Of a stretch of 26,008 nucleotides of DNA, positions 2,390-25,339 are shown piece by piece (positions within the stretch are counted from its first letter, which is position 1; every line of letters starts with the position of its first letter). The DNA comes from a virus. Lineage: Duplodnaviria; Heunggongvirae; Uroviricota; Caudoviricetes. A program made the position numbers and the translations under genes. Where the stretch lies: positions 64,001 to 90,008 of the IMG/VR virus record IMGVR_UViG_3300022660_000063. The stretch is one strand, 5' to 3'. Under the pieces are notes generated by a model that was not told where the DNA came from, searched no databases, and was given only the letters and a program-made list of their open reading frames with translations.

Positions 2390-5269
2390 ATGGCATTTAT
2401 AATAGGTGATAAAGTAGTATCTAATTTAAAAGGTAATTTAAATGAGCAAGCATTAAATGCCATTATAGAATTAATAGATTCAAATGGCAATATAATTACT
2501 CCTGGAAATAATAAGTTGATTTATAATGAGAGTTATACTATAAATGCTATTCCTAATACTGATTTTAAAATTAGAACTATATTTATAAATAATATACCAT
2601 ATAATAATGGTGAAAAATTTCTATATAAACCCGGCACTTTTCCTGAAAATGATTTAAATATAAACATAATATGCGAAGCAGTAGAAGCGGTTGGCCTAAA
2701 TATAAGTATTATTCCTATATCTAATACTACTTTTAAATGGTCTATTTTTGATGAAAGTCCAATCATTGGGTATAATATAACTAGAGATGCTGAGGTACCT
2801 GATTACTGGCTTGAAACACAATTAGAAGGAGAGTATGAAGTTGATTCTTTAGGTACTTATTATGTTTGGGCAAAAGATAATTTAGGTAATACAAATAAAG
2901 CATCTATAACCGCTTATTCAATAGAAGCTATATTAACTGATTGTGAACTAGAAGAAAACCCAGCTTTAAGTATTAAAAATGAATACTCGAGTGAATTAAT
3001 TGCTCCTGAAGGTTATTATTTTGATAATATAAAAGTATTAAAAAATGGTGTTGATATAAGTGAAATATCAGTATTTTTTGACCCAGAAGCTACAGACCCT
3101 GCATTGTTTGAATTTGATGGGAATACTTTAACAAAATATGTAGGCTCTTCAGAAAATATAGTTATACCAAGATCTTATTCTATCGTTGATCAAATATCAG
3201 TGAGTACTTGTAAATTTGATTATTCTCAAATTTATTCCTTTAGAAATTATACAAATAATATAACTGTAAAAAATTCAACTAAAGAAATTACTTACACCAC
3301 TGGAGTGGATTTTTATGATAGTATAAATATTGATTTTCCAGATCAGGATGCTGAATTAATTTCATTCGATGTAACTAATAATAATGCTTATTATTCTATA
3401 GCTAACGCTTTAATATACCCTGTTTACTATAATGATGTGAGATATGATACTTATTCTAATTTATATATAGAGTGGCGTAACACATCTCCTACTGCTATAA
3501 ATTTTGAAGGGGTTATTGATTCCTATGGCAAAGGATCTGAATTTAAAGTAAAAGCAATTAGAGCAAATGCTTTTTCTAATAATGTAAAAAATTTAACCAT
3601 ATTAAGTAACATAGAAGAAATACCTGAGAGAATTTTTAGTGATACATCTAGTTTAGAAACTATAGAAGTATTACATAATAAAAATTTTGTGTCAGTTAAT
3701 AATTGTCTTATAGATACTACAAATAATATTTTATTATTAGGCACAAAAAATAGTATCATACCTTTAGATATGGGTATAAAAAAGATTGGAAGCTCTGCTT
3801 TTTATTTATCTAAGATAAGTTCTATCAATATACCTAATACTGTTGAGTCATTAGGGTCTGCAGCGTTCAGGGAATCAAATATAGTTACTTGCACATTCGA
3901 AATAAATTCTTCTTGTAAAACTATAGGCACTTCATGTTTTAGCAACTGTCCAAATTTGAGTTCAATAATTATACCAAAGAGTGTTGAAACCATAGAACAA
4001 CATGCATTTGTAAGTTGCATAAATTTATCTTCATTTGTTTTTGAAGCAGATTCTAATATAAATAAGATTGATAGCTATGCTTTAGCATATCAGAATAAAT
4101 TAACAACAATAACCTTTCCTAAATCTTTAAAATATTTAGGAGACTATGTTATGGGAAAAGGTACTAGTTCTTATACCCCAACCTTAATTTCTTGTACTTT
4201 TGAAGATGGATGTAACCCTGATTATCACTATGGAAGAACTTTTGAGGGCCAAACATCTTTAAGAAGTGCAACCTTGCCAGATAGTATGACATCTATTCCA
4301 TATGACATGTTTTACAACTGCTCATCATTATCTAATATAAGAATCCCAGATACTATAACTTATATAGGGAATTATGCATTTAGAGGATGTACAAGTTTAC
4401 CTTATACAACATATTCATATGGTAAGTATTTAAGAAGTGTTTCAAACGCTTACTTTATAATGATAGGAAGAACAAGTACTCCTTCTTCGATGACCGTTCA
4501 TTCTTCTTGTAAATTTATTCATGAAGGATTTCATGATGCAACCGCTTTGAGAACTGTTTCTTTACCTAATGGTCTCTTAGGTATAACTGGATTATCATTC
4601 ATGGATGCAGGAATAACTTCTTTGGCTATACCATCAAGTTTAAGATATATAGGAGAAAGAGCTACAGATTATATAACTTATATAACATCTTTAAATATAC
4701 CATCTAATAACCAATTAGAATTTTTAGATAATTCATGTTTTTCAGGTGTTAGTTCAACTTTAAATAAAGTAGCTACTTTCCCAAATTTAATCACTGCTGG
4801 TAACTATGTGTTTAGTAGTAATAAATTCAGTAGTGTTACAGCCCCTAAATTGAAAGTAGCAAAAGATTATTGTTTTCAATCATCTGGTATTAAACCAGAT
4901 GGATTTGAATCTTTAGAAGAGATCGGTTATCAAACTTTTAGTTATTGTACTTTTACATCTGCAAATTTACCTTTATCTGTAAAAATTATAAAAGGAAGTG
5001 CATTTAGTAACTGTGCAAATTTAACACAAATTACTATTAATGAGAATGTTGAAAAAATAGGAAATAATTGCTTTAATAATTGTCCTAATCTTACAACATT
5101 AAATATATTAGGAGAAGGTAGATGGTACAGGACTACTAATGTAAATTACACTGGTGGGGAAGAAGTGGATTTAACTGATGCAAGTTTAAATGCTCAATAT
5201 TTTAAAAGTGACTATGTCACTTCTTATTGGTATAGAGTAAAAGAAGAGGTAGGAAATGAAGAGAATTAA
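2390..5269 (+). CDS. BspA/TpLRR (LRR_5) repeat protein, putative receptor-binding/tail fibre protein 1
   Basis: 959 aa with many IPxxVxxIxxxAFxxCxxL-type repeats from about 3555 to 5120, and N-terminal beta-rich/InlB-B-repeat-like segments. Lies in a tail-gene context. Confidence 0.8.
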   Translation: MAFIIGDKVVSNLKGNLNEQALNAIIELIDSNGNIITPGNNKLIYNESYTINAIPNTDFKIRTIFINNIPYNNGEKFLYKPGTFPENDLNINIICEAVEAVGLNISIIPISNTTFKWSIFDESPIIGYNITRDAEVPDYWLETQLEGEYEVDSLGTYYVWAKDNLGNTNKASITAYSIEAILTDCELEENPALSIKNEYSSELIAPEGYYFDNIKVLKNGVDISEISVFFDPEATDPALFEFDGNTLTKYVGSSENIVIPRSYSIVDQISVSTCKFDYSQIYSFRNYTNNITVKNSTKEITYTTGVDFYDSINIDFPDQDAELISFDVTNNNAYYSIANALIYPVYYNDVRYDTYSNLYIEWRNTSPTAINFEGVIDSYGKGSEFKVKAIRANAFSNNVKNLTILSNIEEIPERIFSDTSSLETIEVLHNKNFVSVNNCLIDTTNNILLLGTKNSIIPLDMGIKKIGSSAFYLSKISSINIPNTVESLGSAAFRESNIVTCTFEINSSCKTIGTSCFSNCPNLSSIIIPKSVETIEQHAFVSCINLSSFVFEADSNINKIDSYALAYQNKLTTITFPKSLKYLGDYVMGKGTSSYTPTLISCTFEDGCNPDYHYGRTFEGQTSLRSATLPDSMTSIPYDMFYNCSSLSNIRIPDTITYIGNYAFRGCTSLPYTTYSYGKYLRSVSNAYFIMIGRTSTPSSMTVHSSCKFIHEGFHDATALRTVSLPNGLLGITGLSFMDAGITSLAIPSSLRYIGERATDYITYITSLNIPSNNQLEFLDNSCFSGVSSTLNKVATFPNLITAGNYVFSSNKFSSVTAPKLKVAKDYCFQSSGIKPDGFESLEEIGYQTFSYCTFTSANLPLSVKIIKGSAFSNCANLTQITINENVEKIGNNCFNNCPNLTTLNILGEGRWYRTTNVNYTGGEEVDLTDASLNAQYFKSDYVTSYWYRVKEEVGNEEN

Positions 5270-6325: not shown

Positions 6326-6460
6326 ATGAATATTAAATTAGGCAGTCAAATAACAGATAATTATAGAGGTGATTTAATAATCAATTCTGAGTACACATCT
6401 GTTGTAGTTAAAGACAGAACGGACATGAAATATCTCAGGGTAAAAAAGTGTTATCTCTAG
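6326..6460 (+). other. Out-of-frame N-terminal exon-like piece of LRR protein 2 (44-aa ORF; one-base frameshift near 6416-6419)
   Basis: Strong SD AAGAGGA precedes ATG 6326. MNIKLGSQITDNYRGDL aligns with the N-terminus of 2390..5269 (MAFIIGDKVVSNLKGNL). Similarity continues in the -1 frame from 6418 (NGHEISQGKKVL vs NGNIITPGNNKL). Confidence 0.7.
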
Positions 6461-8397
6461 GAAACTACACTATAGAAATTACACCTGATGATGGTTACTT
6501 TTTATCAAAAGCTAAATTAAATAATAAATCAATAAAAATAAATTCTTCTTTTGTAGTTAATTTTGGAAACAATATATCAATAGATGCTATAAGTGATGAT
6601 GCTTACACAACAGACGCAAGTTTATTTATGTTTAATGATGCAGGGTTGATAACTGATTATATAGGAGAAGATGAAAATATTGTAATCCCTAGAACATATA
6701 GTATTGGTTCAGTTGAGACAATTATAGGTGCTGATTTAAATTATAGCTATAACTGGATATGGTCTAATATAATAAGTAACGGTGAAGATGCAATCTATGA
6801 CATAACTTTAAGTAATTCTACCAATTCAAAAACATACGCTACGGCAAGTGAATTATATAATAATTTAACTACTGATTTTCCAACTGACGCAAAATTAATA
6901 TCTTTTAAAGCTAAAGAAGGTTCAACAGGTGCTCTTTGGAATATACCAAGATTACTATCTTATCCTGTGTATTTTGGTGAACAGCAATTTAATAATTACT
7001 CAGAGTTACAATCCAAAATGATGTCACAGCCAGTAGATACATTAATAGAAATGATAGGGTATAGAAGTACTTTCGAATCTGGTGCTGATTATATAGTTAC
7101 TGGTATAGCAGATAAAGCTTTTCAAAATTGTACTATATTAAAAAATATAGATTTAAGTGTATGTGAAACATTGAGCACAATAGGAAATTTTGCTTTTTCA
7201 GGTTGCTCAAATATATCTTCTATAACAATTCCAAATAATATAACTAATATAAGTAATTATGCTTTTCAAAATTGTACTAATCTAACTAATGTAAATATGC
7301 ATGATAATTTAATAAGTATCGGTGATTATGCATTTAGTGGTTGTACATCTTTAACAGAGTTAAATCTACCAAGTTCTGTTACATCTATTGGAAGTTATGC
7401 TTTTAATAATTGTACAGGATTTAAAAATATAACTATACCAGATACAATTACATCTTTGGGCAATTATGTATTCTCTGGTTGCAGTGGCTTGACAGATTTA
7501 TATATACCTACATCTATTATTAGTTTAACAGCGGGTCTTTTAAAAAATTGTACATCTTTGACTAACTTAACTATACCATTTGTTGGGACAACTGGAACTG
7601 CTACAACCTATTCTACAGATACAGCATTTGCTATTTTATTCAGCGGGACTGCATCAAGTGATTTAACTTATGATGCTCGTAACTACAATAACTACTCTAC
7701 AACTTATTATTTACCTAACTCTTTAACAAATTTAGTTGTTTTAGGTGGAAATATAAACCAAGGAGCGTTTTATTATTGCGAATCATTGAAATCAGTAGAC
7801 ATATCTGCTTGTCATGTAAATAGTTCCAATTATTTATTTGATTCTTGTTTTGATTTAGAAAATGTTTTACTTCCAGATTCTATGCTGAGTCTTGGTGAAA
7901 GGTGTTTTACAAGCACAAATCTAACATCTCTTCAATTACCAAGTAACTTAAAAACAATAGGAAAGCATGCAATCTACTGTGACCATACTATACAAAGAAT
8001 AATTATACCAGATGGAGTTACATCTATTGCAGTGGATGCTTTTGGACCTTGTGCTAAGTTAGATTTAATTATCGTTCCTGCAACTGTTAAATCTATCGGT
8101 GCTAACTGCTTTTATAGATCAGCTTATGAACCTGAAAAACCATTAAATATTTATTTTTATGATTTAGCTAATATAACAACATTTAATCCTCAAACAAACC
8201 AATATGCAGACCAAAGATTTTTAAATAGCTTTTTTGGTATACATGAAGACAATGCAGTTATATACACAGCTTCTTCAAGTAAATCATCTGTATTGCCAAC
8301 TGAATTTAATAAACTAGGAAATGGCTCATACGCACCAATTAGATATAATTATACTTATGAAGAGTTTATAGAAGCCGCAGGCATTGAAAATTTATAG
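6448..8397 (+). CDS. BspA/TpLRR (LRR_5) repeat protein, putative receptor-binding/tail fibre protein 2 (true start probably 6326 via frameshift)
   Basis: LRR_5 repeats run from about 7090 to 8110. Paralogous to 2390..5269 (TDASLFMF...YIGEDENIVIPRTYS vs TDPALFEF...YVGSSENIVIPRSYS). Ends in TAG. Confidence 0.8.
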   Translation: MLSLGNYTIEITPDDGYFLSKAKLNNKSIKINSSFVVNFGNNISIDAISDDAYTTDASLFMFNDAGLITDYIGEDENIVIPRTYSIGSVETIIGADLNYSYNWIWSNIISNGEDAIYDITLSNSTNSKTYATASELYNNLTTDFPTDAKLISFKAKEGSTGALWNIPRLLSYPVYFGEQQFNNYSELQSKMMSQPVDTLIEMIGYRSTFESGADYIVTGIADKAFQNCTILKNIDLSVCETLSTIGNFAFSGCSNISSITIPNNITNISNYAFQNCTNLTNVNMHDNLISIGDYAFSGCTSLTELNLPSSVTSIGSYAFNNCTGFKNITIPDTITSLGNYVFSGCSGLTDLYIPTSIISLTAGLLKNCTSLTNLTIPFVGTTGTATTYSTDTAFAILFSGTASSDLTYDARNYNNYSTTYYLPNSLTNLVVLGGNINQGAFYYCESLKSVDISACHVNSSNYLFDSCFDLENVLLPDSMLSLGERCFTSTNLTSLQLPSNLKTIGKHAIYCDHTIQRIIIPDGVTSIAVDAFGPCAKLDLIIVPATVKSIGANCFYRSAYEPEKPLNIYFYDLANITTFNPQTNQYADQRFLNSFFGIHEDNAVIYTASSSKSSVLPTEFNKLGNGSYAPIRYNYTYEEFIEAAGIENL

Positions 8398-11599: not shown

Positions 11600-12352
11600 A
11601 TGAAAATATTTAAAGGATTTTTATTTATATTTATAAATATTTTAAATATTATATTAGGATTAGCAACTACAGTAGGTACTTGTTGGTTTGCTTTACCTAC
11701 ATTAAGAATAACAGAAATTGGTACCAAAATAACTTCTGCAATACCAAATAATGTTATATTTTGGATAACAATAGCTGCAGCAAGTTTATTATTGATATTT
11801 TATTTGATAAAGAAATTTTGTTTTAAAAGATACTCTGCAAAAGTTAAAAATTTCTTTACTCATTTAAACACCTGGTTGATGGCAATCATAGCTGTAATAT
11901 TTTCAATAGTAGCATTTATTTATAGTGATATTGAAATACAGAATTTTGATTTAACAAAACTTAGAAAAAGTGGTATCGTAGTTTGCTTTGGTTTATTATT
12001 CTTATCTCATTTAGTTGCAGGCAAAATAGCCAAGGTAATAAATAGAAAAATTCAATCTTATGAAAATGCAAAAGAAATGAATGTAGTAGGAAGAAGTTCA
12101 ATAGTTTTTACTAATATGTTAAAGTTAGTTGAAATATTATTCCCTGAAGTTATTGTTCTTTCTTTGATTTGCTTCTGTGTATCTTGGAATGTAGCGGCTT
12201 ATTTCTTAATTATATTAGTAGCAAGTTTATTACCAATGTTGGGAAATATAGAATGTGATTTCACTACTAGAAGAGAAATAATTAGAAAGAAAGAATTAGA
12301 AGATGCTAAATTTATTGAAAATGTAGCAAATAAAATTAAGGGAGATAGATAA
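11600..12352 (+). CDS. Multi-pass membrane protein (about 5-6 TM segments), next to the holin
   Basis: Repeated 18-22 aa hydrophobic segments and a charged C-terminal tail. SD AGGAG; its stop overlaps the holin start. Confidence 0.7.
   Translation: MKIFKGFLFIFINILNIILGLATTVGTCWFALPTLRITEIGTKITSAIPNNVIFWITIAAASLLLIFYLIKKFCFKRYSAKVKNFFTHLNTWLMAIIAVIFSIVAFIYSDIEIQNFDLTKLRKSGIVVCFGLLFLSHLVAGKIAKVINRKIQSYENAKEMNVVGRSSIVFTNMLKLVEILFPEVIVLSLICFCVSWNVAAYFLIILVASLLPMLGNIECDFTTRREIIRKKELEDAKFIENVANKIKGDR
12304..12317 (+). promoter_or_regulatory. Putative internal promoter motif TGCTAAATTTATTG upstream of the holin
   Basis: 13-nt identity to the intergenic motifs at 1898 and 21824. Lies 35 nt before the holin ATG. 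Confidence 0.4.
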
Positions 12353-12735
12353 TGGATTGGTCAATAATTTTAGATTATGGAGTTAAAATAGCAGGCGTTG
12401 TTATTGCTACTTTAATTACAACTTTTGGTTCTATTTTATTTGCAAAATTAAAAGCAAAGATTCAAGATAAACGAGTAGATAATTTCATAACAAATGCAGT
12501 AAAAGCAGCAGAACAACTTTACCCAAATTTAGGAAAGAAAACTGGTAAAGAAAAATATGAATATGTTTTAAATGAAGTATTAGCTAAATTCCCTAATATG
12601 ACTAATAACCCACATTTAAAAACATTGATAGAAGCAGCAGTTTATGGAGTATCTGAACAAGTTAAACAAATAGCAAAAGAACAAGGTATTGAAGTTGAGG
12701 TTAAATCATCTAAACAAACTTTATCTAGTTTTTAA
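12352..12735 (+). CDS. Holin, LL-H-like family
   Basis: A single N-terminal TM segment followed by AVKAAEQL...GKEKYEYV...LIEAAV, the characteristic LL-H holin pattern. Confidence 0.75.
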   Translation: MDWSIILDYGVKIAGVVIATLITTFGSILFAKLKAKIQDKRVDNFITNAVKAAEQLYPNLGKKTGKEKYEYVLNEVLAKFPNMTNNPHLKTLIEAAVYGVSEQVKQIAKEQGIEVEVKSSKQTLSSF

Positions 12736-12856: not shown

Positions 12857-13933
12857 ATGAAAAGAGAAGATAATATAATAAAAAAATTATTAAACAAAGT
12901 AACTATAGAGCAGTGGCAGAAAGCTTTAAGAGTTATTATAATATGCATGGCATTTATGGCTATATCAGAAGGTATATTTGAGATACCTGCAATAGAAGAA
13001 TTTTTTGGTTCTGGTCTTATAGAAGGTAAGTCTGGTTGGTTGGTGTATGCAATAATCTGAGTGATTATGTTTGCTCAAGTAGCTATAATTCCAATTCCAG
13101 CATTACCTATTTTGGTAGCTTGTAATCAAATACCTAATTTAGTTGCTAATGGAAATGAGATAGCAAATTTATTTAGTCTAACTACTTTATTTTTTGTTGT
13201 ATTTGTATGCTCTGCCACTATAACAGGTGCTATAGCATCATACTGGATAGGAAGAACATTCGGTAAACCAGCTATAAAATGGGTAGCAGGTTCTAATGAA
13301 GATTATGAATTATGGAGTAAAAAATTAAATAGTAAGACAGGTAAATGGATATATGGTGCTACTGTTTTATTTCCTATATTCCCAGATGATTTAATATCAT
13401 TAGTAGTAGGTTCAATTAAAATGAATTTTTCATTTTATGTTATAGTAAATGCAATATGTAAATTCATAGGTTTATATTGCATGTTATTATTTATGAGAAT
13501 ACCTGGGTTAGACATATTCTTTGGTAAAGAGGGAAATGGTCCTCCAATTGCACTAATAGTTTATATTTTAATTTTAATAGTAGCAATTATATTAAAAAAG
13601 ATATTAACAAAGATATCAGATAGAAAGCAACCTAAAGAAGTAAAGTTAGAAGAAATTAAAGAAAAAATACTGTATATATTAAATAAAAAGAAATCTGCTT
13701 ATAAAGATTTAATTATTGATTATAATTTAGATATTAAAACTAGAACATATTTAGGAAGTAGAATTATTATTCATAAATATTATATAGTTAATAAAAATAA
13801 TAAGAAACAAAAAGTTAGAATTTTAATTGATTGTAAAGCAAATAATTATAAACAAATTATATTTGATAAAAGTTATAAATTAACTGAGGTGTATGATACT
13901 TTTGTAGAGGATTTTAAACAATGCGATTTTTAA
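12857..13933 (+). CDS. DedA/VTT (TVP38/TMEM64-like) membrane protein with a C-terminal soluble extension; TGA 13058-13060 read as Trp
   Basis: Track ORFs 12857..13060 and 13061..13933 are in the same frame, separated only by TGA inside a TM helix (LVYAII-W-VIMFAQVAIIPIP). Motifs QVAIIPIP, GAIASYWIGRTFG and LFPIFPDDLISLVVG are typical of VTT/DedA. Confidence 0.8.
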
Positions 13934-15225
13934 GAGAAGAATTATTATTGGAAGATATATGAGATTTAAAAAAATATTTTCCAAAAATTGATGATAAAAA
14001 ATATTTAGCATTAATTCAACTAGATCCTACATATAAAGGTGGTGATATTGCAGGAACTTATGCTAAATGGATTTTAAGTCTTGCTAATAAAAACAAACTA
14101 GATAATATTGGGCATGTTACCGATATATTAAAAAGATTTGAAGAGAATAAGAAAAATCTTAAAAATAAAGATATAATGACTTTTAAATCTCTTGAAGATT
14201 TAGATAACTATCTAAATGATAAAAATTCATATAAAGAACTATCTCAAAGACAAGAATTAAGACAGACTCAAAAAGCTGTAAGAGCTTCTGATATTGAAAA
14301 AGACGCTGAATTAGTTTATGAAGACTCTAATTGAAAAGTATATATTCCTAAAACTTATGAAGCTAGTTGTAAGTTAGGTAGAGATACAAGTTGGTGTACT
14401 GCATCAACTTCAAGTGACTATTATTATGATATGTATACTGATCAAGGACCTTTGTATATAAACATAAATAAAAGAACTAATGATAAATATCAATTTCATT
14501 TTGAGTCAGGTTCTTTTATGGATATGGATGATGATCCTATCGATGTAAAATCTTTCTTTGTAACTTCAGGTAATGAAAATTTATATAATTTTTATAAACC
14601 TTTAATCAGAGAGAAATTAGAAGGGTTGAAACCTTTCGATGATAATTATTCTATTTTAGATGTTAGAATGAGTAAATTAGCTGAAGGGCTTTCTAACAGA
14701 ACTTGGTCAGAAGATTTTTTACTTTCTTGTATGACCGGTGATATTTATGAACAATGAGATTGAACACCTTATTGATATTCAGCGGAAGAATTAGATTTTA
14801 TCACCACTTACTTAAATGACACAAATAAAGAAATACTAAAAGATCATAATATTTCTTTAGATAATTTAATTAATGAATTAAATGAAAATGATGCTTTACA
14901 TGATGCTATCAATATGGCTGTAAATGATGCATATAATGTAGGTAGTCAAGAAGCATGTGTTAAGGATTTTAATAAAGCTTTAGATAAGGCTATACCTTTT
15001 AAGTATAAAGCAAATCAAGAAACTCAACATTATGAAATCTATTTAACAGACAAAGATATTTTAGATCTATATGATTATATAAAAGGTTGTTCAACAGAAG
15101 AAGCTTTTGTTAATTATACAGCAGAAGATTTCTATTTTAGAGAACCTCAATACAGTTGAATGGAATTTGACGAAAGCATTTTTAATGATAGATTAAACGA
15201 TGCTCTTATTACAGAGGTATTTTAA
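13921..15225 (+). CDS. 434-aa uncharacterised phage protein with a W-C-T-A motif domain; six TGA read as Trp; possible head-packaged protein
   Basis: One continuous frame from ATG 13921 (SD GAGG) to TAA 15223-15225, interrupted only by TGA at 13960, 14332, 14755, 14761, 14773 and 15157. Contains W(TGA)KVYIPKTYEASCKLGRDTSWCTAS...GPLYI...KYQFHFES..FMD. Both ends overlap neighbouring genes. Confidence 0.8.
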
Positions 15226-16004
15226 TGAAATTTTTAAAAGAAAATAGAATTTACTTAAATGATTATGGAACTGGTAACATAGAAAATAATCAATATTTTG
15301 ATGTAACAAAAAGTGAAATGTCAAAGTATACAGATTATTTACGAGATCCAGAAAATACAAATAAATATTTTAAAACAACTTCTTCTATTGAAATGCTTAG
15401 CCCTAGAGAATATTTTGAAGCATGTGCAGAAATATTCGATAGCACTTTTGAAAAGCAATATAAACAAATTCAACGTGAATCAGAAGATCTTGAACATTTA
15501 AAAAATGTTATCTTAAAACAAAAGAAAAAATTTCCTATAACAGTTTTAAATTATGCTGAAAATATGCAAGAAGGTAGACATAGAATGTTTACTCTTGGAG
15601 AATTATTTGGTTGGGATAAGAAATATCCAGTGCTAGTTGTAAGAGAAACTCTTGAAGGTAAGGAATATAAAAAACAACAAGCTATATTCAGAGGTTTGAA
15701 TAGATTAACTAATAGAGCATTGGAATTTACTTTTGACAGTTATGAAGATGCTATCGAAGAAATAAGATACCATTTAGACAGAGAATTAAAAGATTACTAT
15801 GATTATGAAGATTTGGATATTATATTAACTAAGAAACCTTCTATAATAATTCAAGTAGATAATGTAAGTTATGAAATAGAAGATGACCTAATAAATATAG
15901 ATCCAGATAGAGAAAAAGATGACTTAGAAGATTTATTAGATATTGAAGATTTAATGTCTGAATTATCTCCTAGAGAACGTGAAATGTTTAAATTTGATAA
16001 CTAA
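15225..16004 (+). CDS. ParB/Srx-like domain protein
   Basis: FPITVL...QEGRHRM (15567-15584) resembles the ParB N-terminal/sulfiredoxin (D/E)GxHR motif. Acidic C-terminus. Confidence 0.55.
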   Translation: MKFLKENRIYLNDYGTGNIENNQYFDVTKSEMSKYTDYLRDPENTNKYFKTTSSIEMLSPREYFEACAEIFDSTFEKQYKQIQRESEDLEHLKNVILKQKKKFPITVLNYAENMQEGRHRMFTLGELFGWDKKYPVLVVRETLEGKEYKKQQAIFRGLNRLTNRALEFTFDSYEDAIEEIRYHLDRELKDYYDYEDLDIILTKKPSIIIQVDNVSYEIEDDLINIDPDREKDDLEDLLDIEDLMSELSPREREMFKFDN

Positions 16005-16029
16005 ATAAGATAAGGAGATTATGTAGCCA

Positions 16030-19000
16030 ATGACTTATAATTTCGATGAATTAAATAATCTTTCAGAAGAAGAGAAAAAATTAGCTTTAAGTATTTTAGA
16101 AGAATTTTCAAAAGAAGGTACCTCTAAAGTATTTGAAGATTTAAAATACGCAGATTATAACGAGATACCCGTAGACATAGAAACATTCTTAGATGACAAT
16201 AATTATTTAGGACATGCTTGACATGATGCTGAAGGTAAATCTAAATTATATCCTTTTTGAAGAGAAAAATTAAAAAAATTATTTCCGGATAATATTTCAA
16301 CTAGTGTAAATACATTTATTGAATCAGGAGCAAGAGGTTTAGGTAAAGCACAACCATTAGATAGTAAAGTTATGACATCTGATGGGTTTATTCCTATGGG
16401 ATCAATTAAACCTGGTATGAATGTAATTGGAGCGGATGGTAAGCCACATATCGTCACTCATATTTTTCCGCAAGGTGTTAAAGATGTTTATAAAATAACT
16501 TTTACAGATAAAACAACTACTGAATGTTGTAAAGAACATCTTTGGACAATTTTGCCAAAAAATAATTATAAGTATAAGAAAACTATTCATTTGCAAGAGT
16601 TATTCGACAAACCATTAATTAAGGTAAAACAAGGTAAATATAAAGAACATCTTTATTATATACCTGTAACTAAGCCAATTGAGTTTGAGAAAAAAGAACT
16701 ACTAATTGATCCATATATATTAGGGGTAATTTTAGGCGATGGCTGTATCCGAAGAAACTCATGTTCATTAACAAGTGCAGATAAAGAATTAATCGATTAT
16801 ATATCAAATAAATTAGATAAAACATTTGATAACATAAAAATAAGCCCATTACCATCATGTAAGTATGGATATATATTTTCTCAAAAAGTAAAAAAATTTA
16901 CTGTTGGTCCTAAAGGTAATCCTGTCGCCGAACCAAATCCTTTTGTTGAAGCATTACATGATTTAAATCTGATAAAATCTTCAGCTGATAAATTTATACC
17001 AAATATTTATTTACATAGCTCAGTCGAAGATAGAATTGAATTATTACAAGGATTAATGGATACTGATGGTACAATAACAAAAAATGGATCAACAATCCAA
17101 TTTAATACAATCAGTTCACAACTTTGTGACAATTTTATTTATCTAGTACAATCATTAGGTGGTGTAGCTCAATACAAAGAAGTTACAGGTAAATATAAAA
17201 AAGATGGGAAAGTTATAGAATGTAATACAAGCTATACTATCTCTATAAAATTACCTAAAGAAATAAAACCATTTAAATTATCACGAAAACTATCTAGAAT
17301 TAATCCTAATTCTTTAAATCCTAGTAGAGCTATAGAATCAATTGAATTGTCTAGAAAAGTTGAATGTCAATGCATAATGATTAATAGTGATGATCATTTG
17401 TATTTAACTGATAATTGTATAGTTACACATAATTCCGAAATCGCTGTTGCTGTTGCTTGTTATCTAATGTACAGGATAATGTGCTTGAAAAACCCAATTG
17501 AATTTTTTCACTTAAAACCAACTGAAAAAATATGTTTTGCTTTTATGAATATTAAATTAGCTTTAGCAGAAGAAATTGGTATTAGTAAATTTCAAAACAC
17601 AGTAAAACTTTCACCATGGTTTATGGCAAGAGGAACTATGGAAGGTAGGACTAATTTAAAATGGGTTCCACCTGATTATATCAATATAATAATTGGTTCC
17701 CAAGCAGATGACTTGATTGGTTTGCCTATTTTCTTTGCTTTCTTTGATGAAATTTCATTTATGAGAAATCAAGATATAGATAAACAAAAAGAAAAAGCAA
17801 TTAATATGATTGATACCGCTATTGGGGGTATGAAAACAAGGTTTATTTATAAAGGTATAAATCCTACTTTACTTGCTTTAGCATCTTCGAAACGAAGTGA
17901 AAAATCATTCCTTGAAGAGCATATTAAAAAGAAATTAAAATCTGAGAAAGAAAATGTTTTAATTGTTGATGAACCTGTTTGGAAAGTTAAGCCAAAAGGT
18001 ACTTATAAAGAAGAAACATTTAATGTAGCTTTAGGAAATAAGTTCTTGATGTCTCAAGTTATACCTACTAATGATGATGTAGATATATGGAGAGATAAAG
18101 GCTATAAAATAATTGAAGTTCCTATAGATTTTAAATCAAACTTTTTAGATGATATTGAAAGAGCATTATGTGACTTTGCTGGTATATCATCAAGTGAAAT
18201 TAGTAAATATATTTCTGGTGTTGCAGTACAAGAAATTAAAAATCTTGAATTACAAAATCCATTTATTAAAGATATATTAGAAATAGGAAATAGTCAAGAA
18301 GATAAGATACAATACTATGATTTATTTGATTTAAGTAAAGTAAATAAAAGATTAAAGAGTAGACCTTTGTTTATTCATCTAGATATGTCAGTAAGCGGAG
18401 ATATGACTGGTATTGCAGGTGTTTGGATTAAAGGTAAAAAACTAAGTACAACTGAAAATCAATCAAATGATTTATTTTATACTCTTGCTTTTTCAGTTTC
18501 GATTAAAGCACCAAAAGGATATCAAATATCTTTTGAAAAGAATAGAAATTTTATTTATTGGTTAAAAGAACAAGGATTTAATATTCAAGGTATCACGACA
18601 GATACTTTCCAAAGTTATGATACAGGTCAAGCATTACTTGCTAAAGGATATAAGTATAGTGTTTTATCTGTTGATAGAGTAGATTCAGATCATATATGTA
18701 AACCTTATCAAAATTTTAAATCTACAATTTATGAGAAAAGACTAGAAATATATGATTCTAAAACTTTAATTGATGAAATTATAGATCTAGAAAGAAATAT
18801 AAATACTGGAAAAGTAGATCACCCTGATGGTGGACGAAAAGACGTGTGCGATGCTGTATGTGGAGCATTATTTAATGCATCTAAAAATGCAGAACAATTT
18901 GCTTTTGATTTCGGAGAAAGTTTAGATACAACATTACAAGTAAGTAATGCTACAGCAAATGATAGTTATACTAAAAAACAAATAAATATAGAATTTGAAG

Positions 19001-19215
19001 AAGAGATAAAAAATTTACTAGATCCTCTATCAAAACAAAAGCAAAAAATATTAGATAAAAGCAGTTCTATTGAAAATAAACAAGAAAATAATGCTAAATT
19101 TAAAGAAAATAACCAATCTAATTCTAATGCGTTTAAACCAATAGATTTTGGATTTGGTTCAGCTACACCTTATAAGCCATCTGCATTAAGAGATGGGATT
19201 ATATTCTGAGGTTAA
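16030..19215 (+). CDS. terL: Terminase large subunit with an intein; TGA at 16219, 16258 and 19207 read as Trp
   Basis: SD AAGGAG precedes ATG 16030, and the frame is continuous with track ORF 16372..19209. Walker A GARGLGK/S is split by the intein; Walker B FAFFDEI; nuclease motifs IHLDMS, ITTDTFQS and KVDHP..GRKDVCDAVCG are present. Walker A lies upstream of the track's start, so readthrough is required. Ends TGA-GGT-TAA. Confidence 0.92.
16348..17433 (+). mobile_element. Class 3 intein (362 aa) with a LAGLIDADG homing endonuclease, inserted in the TerL Walker A motif
   Basis: Begins AQPLDSKV (Ala1) after GK and ends IVTHN before Ser+1. Block B is ECCKEHLW and block F is VECQCI. LAGLIDADG motifs are PYILGVILGDG and ELLQGLMDTDG. 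Confidence 0.92.
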
Positions 19216-19233
19216 AAGGAGATTTATAGATAG

Positions 19234-21108
19234 ATGCCTAATGAAATAGATTCAGCTGTAATAGATGATGAAGTTAATTATAATAAAAAGATAAGACCTA
19301 TTCCTAAACCTCAACAAAGTGATACTGATCTAGCAGAGCGAGGTATTGCTTCGGTAATAGCAGAGATAGGTGATAGTAGCAAAATAGATATATCTGCAAT
19401 CAATTCATTTGACCAAGCAAGTCAGACACGAGATCAGCTATACCAATTATTAGATACGATGGGTGATGATCCAACAGTTGCTGCTGTATTAGAAACATAT
19501 GCAGAAGATGCTACTGAATATAATGAAAATGGAGAAATTGTTTGGTCAGAATCTGATGATGCAAATGTAAATAAATATATTACTTATCTATTAAAAAGTT
19601 TAAAGGTAGATAAAAATATTTATAAATGGGTTTACTCATTGATTAAATATGGTGATATTTATTGGGAATTATTTAAAGAATCTGAATATAATAATGACGA
19701 GTTCTTCAATACAAATGCAAATAAAGAAACTGATGAAGATATTCAAAAGAGAAAATCTCTTAAAGAAGCTATAGATATAAATCTTTATAAAACAACTGAT
19801 CATTATGTACATTATATAGAAGCAGTTCCAAATCCCGCTACAACTTTTGAATTAACTAGATTTGGCAAAACAGCTGGCTTTATACAAACAGATATCGGAA
19901 CAATAGCAAAGAATAAAAATAATTTAATAACAACTTCTTATAGTTATAGATTCCAAAAAGATGATATAAATATTTATAATGGAGATAAATTTGTTCATGC
20001 CGCTCTCGAAGACAACACATCAAGAATACCTGAAAAAGTAAAATTATTTAGAGATGACAATGCTTTACAGAAAGATAATGGTACAGAGTACACCGTCAAA
20101 CGTGGTCAGTCCCTTTTATACAACGTATTTAAAATATGGCGTGAATTATCTTTATTAGAAAACTCAATGCTATTAAACAGAATAACTAAATCATCTATTA
20201 CAAGAGTGATCAATGTTGAAATTGGTGATATGCCAAAAGAAGATGTCAGAGGTTATTTAGCAGGTATAAAACAATTAATAGAACAAAAATCAGCAATTGA
20301 TGCTGGTAATTCAATGTCTGATTACACTAACCCAGGACCTATTGAAAATAATATTTATGTACCAACTCATAATGGCCAGGGTTCAATTACAGCAAACCAA
20401 ATAGGTGGAGATGTAAATGTAGGTCAATTACCTGATGTTGATTATTTTACTAATAAATATTATGGTGCATTAAGGGTACCTAAACAATATTTTGGGTTTA
20501 CTGATGATGGTGCAGGATTTAGTGGTGGTCAATCTTTAGCAATTATATCTTCAAGATATGCTAAAGCAATAAAGAGAATCCAAAACACTGTTATTCAAGG
20601 CATAACTGATGTTATTAATTTAATGTTAATAGATAAAGGCTTACAATCTTACTTAGGTAAGTTTACTATTAAAATGCAACCACCAACAACTCAAGAAGAA
20701 ATTGATAGAAGAGAAAATACTGTTGGAAGAATTGGTATCGTAAGAGATGTCATGGATCTTTTAACTGATGTAGATAATCCAGCAACAAAACTTAAAATAT
20801 TAAAAATACTTTTATCTAATGTTATATCAGATTCAGATATAACAAGCTTATTAGAAGAACAGATAGATGAATTAGAGCAACCAGGATTAAGTGAAACTTC
20901 TCAAGAGGAAGAAGATTTAGGATTAGGTAGTTCTAGTAACATAGGCAGTGATATTGGACTTGGAGAAAATGAACCATTAGACTTAGACACTGAATTAGGA
21001 TTAGAGACTGAAACTGAAATTTCTCCAGAAGAGGAAGAAGATATTTTACCAACACCTGAAGAAGCGGGTGAAGGCGAAGATTTTACAGATAATAATTTAG
21101 AATTTTAA
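19234..21108 (+). CDS. Portal protein (T4 gp20-like)
   Basis: RVINVEIGDMPKEDVRGYL and DVDYFTNKYYGALRVPKQYF match gp20-family motifs. Acidic C-terminal tail; lies directly after terL. Confidence 0.88.
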   Translation: MPNEIDSAVIDDEVNYNKKIRPIPKPQQSDTDLAERGIASVIAEIGDSSKIDISAINSFDQASQTRDQLYQLLDTMGDDPTVAAVLETYAEDATEYNENGEIVWSESDDANVNKYITYLLKSLKVDKNIYKWVYSLIKYGDIYWELFKESEYNNDEFFNTNANKETDEDIQKRKSLKEAIDINLYKTTDHYVHYIEAVPNPATTFELTRFGKTAGFIQTDIGTIAKNKNNLITTSYSYRFQKDDINIYNGDKFVHAALEDNTSRIPEKVKLFRDDNALQKDNGTEYTVKRGQSLLYNVFKIWRELSLLENSMLLNRITKSSITRVINVEIGDMPKEDVRGYLAGIKQLIEQKSAIDAGNSMSDYTNPGPIENNIYVPTHNGQGSITANQIGGDVNVGQLPDVDYFTNKYYGALRVPKQYFGFTDDGAGFSGGQSLAIISSRYAKAIKRIQNTVIQGITDVINLMLIDKGLQSYLGKFTIKMQPPTTQEEIDRRENTVGRIGIVRDVMDLLTDVDNPATKLKILKILLSNVISDSDITSLLEEQIDELEQPGLSETSQEEEDLGLGSSSNIGSDIGLGENEPLDLDTELGLETETEISPEEEEDILPTPEEAGEGEDFTDNNLEF

Positions 21109-25277: not shown

Positions 25278-25339
25278 GAAGATATAGTTTAAGGTAAAAC
25301 ACAATGATTGAGATATTGGTTCAAATCCAATTATCTTGA
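25278..25339 (+). ncRNA. tRNA-like element lacking the anticodon loop (62 nt)
   Basis: Acceptor GAAGATA/TATCTTG (6 bp plus a G:G mismatch at 1:72), T8A9, D-arm GTTT-AAGGTA-AAAC, a 9-nt stub CAATGATTG, variable region AGAT, T-arm ATTGG-TTCAAAT-CCAAT, discriminator A. No encoded CCA. Confidence 0.7.

Follow-up and report, generated by a model that had tools for sequence, protein, structure and literature searches.

The bacteriophage described here very probably translates UGA as tryptophan (Trp) by means of a tRNA(UCA) of its own, in a host that uses the standard genetic code, its recoding being at an early and sparse stage. The window that was analysed comprises 26,008 nucleotides and corresponds to the final 26 kb of the 90,008-bp IMG/VR record IMGVR_UViG_3300022660_000063 (hereafter G000). 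Within this window, the stretch at 12857-19215 contains ten in-frame TGA codons in three genes: those of a VTT/DedA-family membrane protein, of a protein of unassigned function (P0002, a label used here) and of the large terminase (TerL). A first-pass annotation had proposed that TGA encodes Trp in this stretch. Gut and rumen phages in which TGA is reassigned to Trp (code 4), among them the Agate and Jade clades, are already known (Borges et al., bioRxiv 10.1101/2021.08.26.457843, later Nat Microbiol 2022), as is the general mechanism; the present phage is a further case.

In the proposed mechanism, (i) the tryptophanyl-tRNA synthetase (TrpRS) of the host would charge tRNA(UCA) with Trp; (ii) the charged tRNA would compete with the host release factor 2 (RF2) at UGA; and (iii) the ten TGAs of the VTT, P0002 and TerL genes would thereby be read through as Trp. 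A few genes close to the holin and the packaging module would be the main place where TGA is tolerated or favoured by selection; there, it may hold back or restrict their translation until enough suppressor tRNA has built up.

In-frame TGA codons in three neighbouring genes

The VTT/DedA-family gene (12857..13933, + strand; 358 aa; Pfam VTT_dom, 1.4e-11) lies just downstream of the holin gene and has one in-frame TGA at 13058-13060 (W68). It is followed on the same strand by the gene of P0002 (13921..15225; 434 aa; defined by translation and by 322 homologues), with six TGAs at 13960, 14332, 14755, 14761, 14773 and 15157 (W14, W138, W279, W281, W285 and W413, respectively). The gene of TerL (16030..19215, + strand; 1061 aa; PHROG terminase families, Pfam LAGLIDADG) has three, at 16219, 16258 and 19207 (W64, W77 and W1060, the latter being the second-last residue). 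These ten positions are the ones given by the first-pass annotation. P0002 is the most recoded gene, as six of its nine Trp codons are TGA (binomial P = 7e-6). Between P0002 and TerL, a 259-aa gene of unassigned function (15225..16004, + strand) has no TGA; its counterparts in two related contigs, L001 and L002, carry one or two.

When TGA is read as sense, the fragments are joined into three continuous open reading frames (ORFs) of 358, 434 and 1061 aa, as had been claimed, and the coding density of the stretch, which the first-pass annotation had suggested comparing among codes, rises from 0.859 (TGA as stop) to 0.996 (TGA as sense). Translation table 4 thus yields three long ORFs plus the one TGA-free gene, and table 11 yields fragments. 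The overlapping gene junctions described in the first pass are also present: a 13-nt overlap at 13921/13933, which is found in the relative L002 as well, and a TAATG junction at 15225. Similarly, the 25 complete genes of the window all end in TAA (21) or TAG (4). Taken alone, this last fact proves little, since AT-rich relatives that use the standard code seldom have TGA stops either (2.7% in one example; Borges et al., bioRxiv 10.1101/2021.08.26.457843).

The window has 10 in-frame TGA versus 68 TGG codons, and the TGAs are confined to the three genes. In these genes, in-frame TGA is strongly depleted relative to the off-frames (in TerL, 3 in frame versus 59 in frame +2), and the frames are broken by TGA only, never by TAA or TAG. 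In TerL, the read-through restores the Walker A motif and the start of an intein, in agreement with the first-pass annotation: both are located upstream of the first table-11 ATG (16372) and connect to the N-terminus of the protein solely via W64 and W77. The LAGLIDADG intein (16348..17433, + strand; residues 107-468, 362 aa; Pfam LAGLIDADG_3 and Hom_end), whose boundaries were set by alignment with an intein-free orthologue in L002, interrupts the protein after GLGK, within the Walker A motif (GARGLGK, residues 100-106). The intein starts with Ala instead of Cys or Ser and finishes with HN, Ser being found at +1.

All ten TGAs are present in three further assemblies obtained from other samples (L057, L058 and L059), which are 99.98-100% identical to the window, and these concordant independent assemblies rule out sequencing error. 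A different reading, i.e., that the TGAs are real stops, whether in broken genes, through assembly errors or with a low level of programmed read-through in place of reassignment, is very improbable. It finds some support in the splitting of these genes by public table-11 gene callers and in the unusual proximity of five TGAs to gene ends (see below). Nevertheless, it would imply that essential genes are hit and that the Walker A region of TerL is severed, and it does not agree with the interruption of the frames by TGA alone, with the recurrence of the same sites in four assemblies, with the sharing or swapping of sites in diverged relatives, or with the existence of a dedicated tRNA(UCA). As a separate observation, L058 (JGI 3300018494) has a G>T change at window position 17950 (L058 8717) that creates an in-frame TAA inside the terminase gene, and this corresponds either to a defective variant or to an assembly error; all three differences between L058 and the window are changes to T.

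In practical terms, table-11 calls shatter the terminase, P0002 and VTT genes of this abundant phage, and table 4 is needed for its annotation.

The inserted amino acid and its putative decoding tRNA

The first-pass annotation had described Trp-like contexts around the TGAs and had suggested aligning homologues at each TGA column. The conserved columns bear out Trp; positions 281 and 285 of P0002, which belong to a variable segment, are not conserved. In an alignment of 120 of the 322 homologues of P0002, column 138 has W in 107 of the 120 sequences (F in 11 and Y in 2) and column 413 has W in 98 of the 120; column 279 is aromatic (F 66, W 23, Y 11); and column 14 has W in the closest relatives only. 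In TerL, W77 is invariant in nine of nine terminases (from Streptococcus, Bacillus, Listeria, Vibrio and Yersinia phages, plus two metagenomic relatives). Regarding the C-terminus, the tail of the family among 150 representatives follows the pattern [D/G]-hydrophobic x3-[W/L/I/F], often ending in W or WG (for instance, ..YWG). The representatives closest to TerL end in DGIIIW, DGIIVW and QGIVIW and, therefore, the TGA at 19207 occupies a Trp position. The possibility that this TGA was an ancestral stop, raised by a distant homologue that reads "...GIII" followed by TGA, was rejected in view of the conservation of the terminal Trp among the 150 representatives. A tblastn search of phages with the TerL tail gave no match.

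Further evidence comes from three related contigs, L001, L002 and L003, which derive from other samples and show 60-84% protein identity. They have in-frame TGAs in the same genes, and TGA and TGG replace each other at identical columns: positions 61 and 68 of VTT; 138, 279 and 413 of P0002; and 64 and 545 of TerL. Thus, W68 of VTT is encoded by TGG in L001 and L002, where W61 is encoded by TGA (TGG in the window), and W64 of TerL is encoded by TGG in L002. At W14 of P0002 and at W77 and W1060 of TerL, TGA is common to the window and its relatives. A suspected TGA stop between two L001 genes was rejected, as both turned out to form one continuous gene.

As table 25 opens the same frames as table 4, the reading of TGA as glycine (Gly), as in Absconditabacteria/Gracilibacteria and their phages, has to be weighed together with that of selenocysteine (Sec). 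In support of Gly, the two closest relatives have this residue at position 281 of P0002, where it is also the one most often found among homologues; in support of Sec, ARAGORN labels the tRNA(UCA) described below as "SeC". In any case, Gly is absent from the residues listed at any conserved TGA column, which are Trp, aromatic or hydrophobic only; hence, code 25 and Sec were rejected, and the probability that remains for either of them is minimal. Besides, TGA alternates with TGG at the conserved sites, never with GGN or TGY; the 32 TGA sites of the genome are scattered and show no alternation with Cys; at most 12% of the genes carry TGA, whereas phages with code 25 are expected to be recoded in most genes; and the tRNA(UCA) has a standard 7/5 shape with A1-U72 and G73, its extra arm displaying the anticodon loop of a Trp tRNA. 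The evidence thus argues for Trp as the amino acid that would be inserted.

A decoding tRNA was found neither in the window nor in the 90-kb record, using ARAGORN with standard, intron and relaxed settings as well as Rfam; these gave just a tRNA-like element that lacks an anticodon and a sub-threshold hit, which was rejected since it lies inside a coding region. No tRNA was found either in the loci L001 and L009-L012 (approximately 50 kb along the contig of a relative). In IMG/VR, a search with an early gene of the phage returned no relatives, and one with the portal protein returned only distant relatives with 53% GC and the standard code.

The tRNA(UCA) with Trp-type features envisaged in the first pass is present in the same phage, outside the window. 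It was located in L014, a 154,272-bp contig from the Joint Genome Institute (JGI) that belongs to the same phage and was found via an early gene of the record (99.99% match over 13.8 kb). The tRNA (L014 3305-3401; 97 nt; detected by ARAGORN and by Rfam tRNA with 38 bits) is located 4.0 kb upstream of the first base of the record and 3.3 kb downstream of an array of 16 tRNAs. The same tRNA(UCA) occurs at 484-577 in the IMG/VR record G001 (58 kb, the rest of the phage), which also contributes 16 ordinary tRNAs.

The minimum free energy fold of this molecule is a cloverleaf with an extra hairpin. It has an A1-U72 pair, a G73 discriminator and the anticodon loop CUUCAAA, and it aligns as a standard tRNA, with a 7-bp acceptor stem and a 5-bp T-stem. 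A1-U72 and G73 are acceptor identity elements of bacterial tRNA-Trp. The extra arm consists of 6 bp and a loop, CUCCAAA, identical to the anticodon loop of the tRNA-Trp(CCA) that the phage also encodes; the length of this arm is the reason for the "SeC" label. A pattern scan of IMG/VR gave 25 hits, 18 of which are tRNAs of this two-armed design, on 18 other contigs. In an alignment of 13 sequences, the stems of the acceptor, T and extra arms covary, and the tRNA(UCA) of this phage is the most divergent of the 13, with differences in its D-arm and extra-arm stems. No description of such a two-armed tRNA was found in the literature searched.

As to a release factor or TrpRS, for which the first-pass annotation had suggested searching, neither came to light: 148 kb of the genome contain neither an RF-1 domain nor a TrpRS, and none appears among the Pfam annotations that JGI gives for the gaps left.

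Extent of recoding and the probable host

In the whole genome (175 genes), 32 TGA codons are found versus 434 TGG codons, so that TGA represents 6.9% of the Trp codons; in the other A/G pairs (Lys, Glu, Gln, Leu(TTR), Arg(AGR) and Gly(GGR)), 77-89% of the codons end in A. At most 21 of the 175 genes (12%) carry TGA, and all 175 reach a TAA or a TAG. From this small share of codons and genes, a standard-code host and an early, sparse stage of recoding are inferred, instead of a Mycoplasma-like code. The host is probably one of the Clostridia, judging from relatives and gene content: relatives of the capsid protein are binned in metagenome-assembled genomes (MAGs) of Clostridiales and Lachnospiraceae. 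The distant relatives L007, L008 and L060 use TGA as a stop.

A host that itself uses code 4 (Mycoplasma/Spiroplasma-like or another bacterium in which UGA is Trp), with the phage simply following it, is unlikely. Such a host would be in keeping with the very AT-rich genome (28% GC), with the fact that TGA is never the sole terminator in 175 genes, and with the co-occurrence of tRNA-Trp(CCA) and tRNA-Trp(UCA), both of which are carried by native code-4 organisms and by this phage. The genomes of Mycoplasma/Spiroplasma encode Trp chiefly by TGA and no longer have RF2. A long-standing code-4 genome under AT pressure would have mostly TGA for Trp, as opposed to the 6.9% observed here, and the phage has its own specialised suppressor tRNA, a phage-encoded molecule with an anticodon-like arm, as the decoder. 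Phages that match a recoded host have TGA in approximately 90% of their genes, against 12% here (Borges et al.). Moreover, the relatives and the gene content (Holin_LLH holin, BspA-type leucine-rich repeat (LRR) proteins) point to Clostridia.

According to Borges et al., recoding proceeds from low GC to the loss of TGA stops, then to the gain of a suppressor tRNA and, finally, to the accumulation of TGA. The present phage fits this route, as well as a standard-code Firmicute host, and does not fit a long-standing code-4 host. Like the phages of that study, (i) it is large and low in GC; (ii) it has in-frame TGA at Trp positions and has nearly lost TGA as a terminator; (iii) it encodes a tRNA(UCA) and has a probable standard-code Firmicutes host; and (iv) it has recoded genes, that of a transmembrane protein among them, grouped next to the lysis cassette, and a recoded homing endonuclease gene elsewhere. 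In contrast, its recoding is sparser (at most 12% of the genes versus clade means of 26-71%), and its major structural genes and its holin gene are free of TGA. The two Jade phages have an RF1 or TrpRS module, unlike this phage, which has none; as far as it was compared with the Agate clade, it agrees in genome size and lifestyle.

The phages of the crAss-like and Lak groups that reassign TAG to glutamine (Peters et al., 2022, PMC9523058; Borges et al.) share with it a stop reassignment driven by the phage, a standard-code host and a suppressor tRNA. They differ in the codon, the amino acid and the host phylum involved, and in a higher density of recoded codons. In their case, metaproteomics backs the reassignment (PMC9523058; Borges et al.).

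Several points weigh against the reading of UGA as Trp through a phage tRNA(UCA) or against parts of it. Which amino acid is inserted was deduced from homologue columns and tRNA features. Two of the P0002 columns, 281 and 285, are unconserved, and L001 and L002 have GGT (Gly) at the former. That the two loops do not vary among the tRNAs from IMG/VR is not independent evidence, because both were fixed by the search pattern. The binning of a lytic phage in MAGs is a weak clue to its host. Finally, five TGAs lie within six codons of a TAA or TAG, versus 0.74 expected (P = 0.001; Fisher test against TGG, P = 0.002), and this excess means that termination at UGA may persist in some genes, the TAA or TAG that follows serving as a back-up. 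The five TGAs, located 1-5 codons before the stop, are those at G000 689, 11672 and 34906, at window 19207 and in the gene at G001 18862-19866 (reverse strand; last codon). The one in the terminase is accounted for by a conserved Trp; the other four may be former stops with back-up stops.

A stronger version of the proposal states that, in this early-stage code change, UGA deliberately gates the TerL, P0002 and DedA-like genes, and that the suppressor tRNA keeps its recognition by the host TrpRS via a decoy Trp anticodon hairpin; this is possible, but doubtful. A gate of late genes by TGA is only partly supported, by a TGA-bearing block that starts next to the holin gene and takes in that of TerL. 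It is at odds with the absence of TGA from the genes of the capsid protein, portal, protease, fibres and holin, and with its presence elsewhere in the genome, some early-type genes included, in those of a single-stranded DNA-binding protein (SSB), a formate channel, a reverse transcriptase of a diversity-generating retroelement (DGR) and a homing endonuclease. It can be supposed equally well that only genes of which little protein is needed tolerate TGA.

With 7% of its Trp codons as TGA, one suppressor tRNA, and neither release factor nor synthetase, this phage is a clean example of low-density recoding and usefully illustrates the beginnings of a code change. It also provides a simple system for asking (i) whether UGA gates packaging and lysis-proximal genes; and (ii) how the host TrpRS accepts a tRNA with a UCA anticodon.

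The source phage and its other features

The source is a T4-like phage of approximately 154.4 kb and 28% GC which probably infects anaerobic bacteria of the gut or rumen. Its nearest cultured relatives are myoviruses of Bacillus, Listeria and Streptococcus, with a capsid-protein identity of just 26-33%. The 90,008-bp record has 27.9% GC and a CheckV completeness of 58%, and IMG/VR splits the phage into two fragments, i.e., this 90-kb record and the 58-kb G001. An identical portal protein is found on at least 23 contigs from various samples, many of them of approximately 154.3-154.4 kb. Assemblies of the phage (L014, L057-L059) measure 154,272-154,409 bp, have differing start points and come from at least four samples; these sizes and starts suggest a complete genome that is circularly permuted or terminally redundant. 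Over the 13.8 kb compared, the sole substitution between the record and L014 (G000 3802, L014 11226) turns TCA (Ser) into an in-frame TGA, seven codons before the end of a 415-aa gene; apart from this, the two differ only in a 1-nt indel right where the record starts.

In the window, every real gene is on the + strand. The Pfam/PHROG set includes, for the head, a T4-type portal, a prohead protease (S77) and a Gp23-type major capsid protein and, apart from these, the large terminase with its LAGLIDADG intein, a Holin_LLH holin and two BspA-type LRR proteins. The holin gene (12352..12735, + strand; 127 aa; Pfam Phage_holin_6_1, PHROG holin) has no TGA, and the TGA-bearing block begins directly downstream of it. 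The two BspA-type LRR proteins are large (window 2390-5269 and 6448-8397) and are probable fibres.

P0002 is probably a virion or fibre-associated protein. In other phages, BspA-LRR proteins have its N-terminal 250 aa or so as their own N-terminal module, a relationship that suggests a virion protein related to fibres, and a partial match in Pseudomonas phage PA5oct bears the annotation "structural protein".

Lastly, a tRNA-like element of 62 nt is found at window 25278-25339 (+ strand; Rfam tRNA, 48.4 bits). Its acceptor, D and T arms are intact, and its anticodon arm is shrunk to a CAA-UGA-UUG mini-hairpin, so that it cannot decode. It is located between the gene that follows the capsid gene and a gp13-like neck gene.

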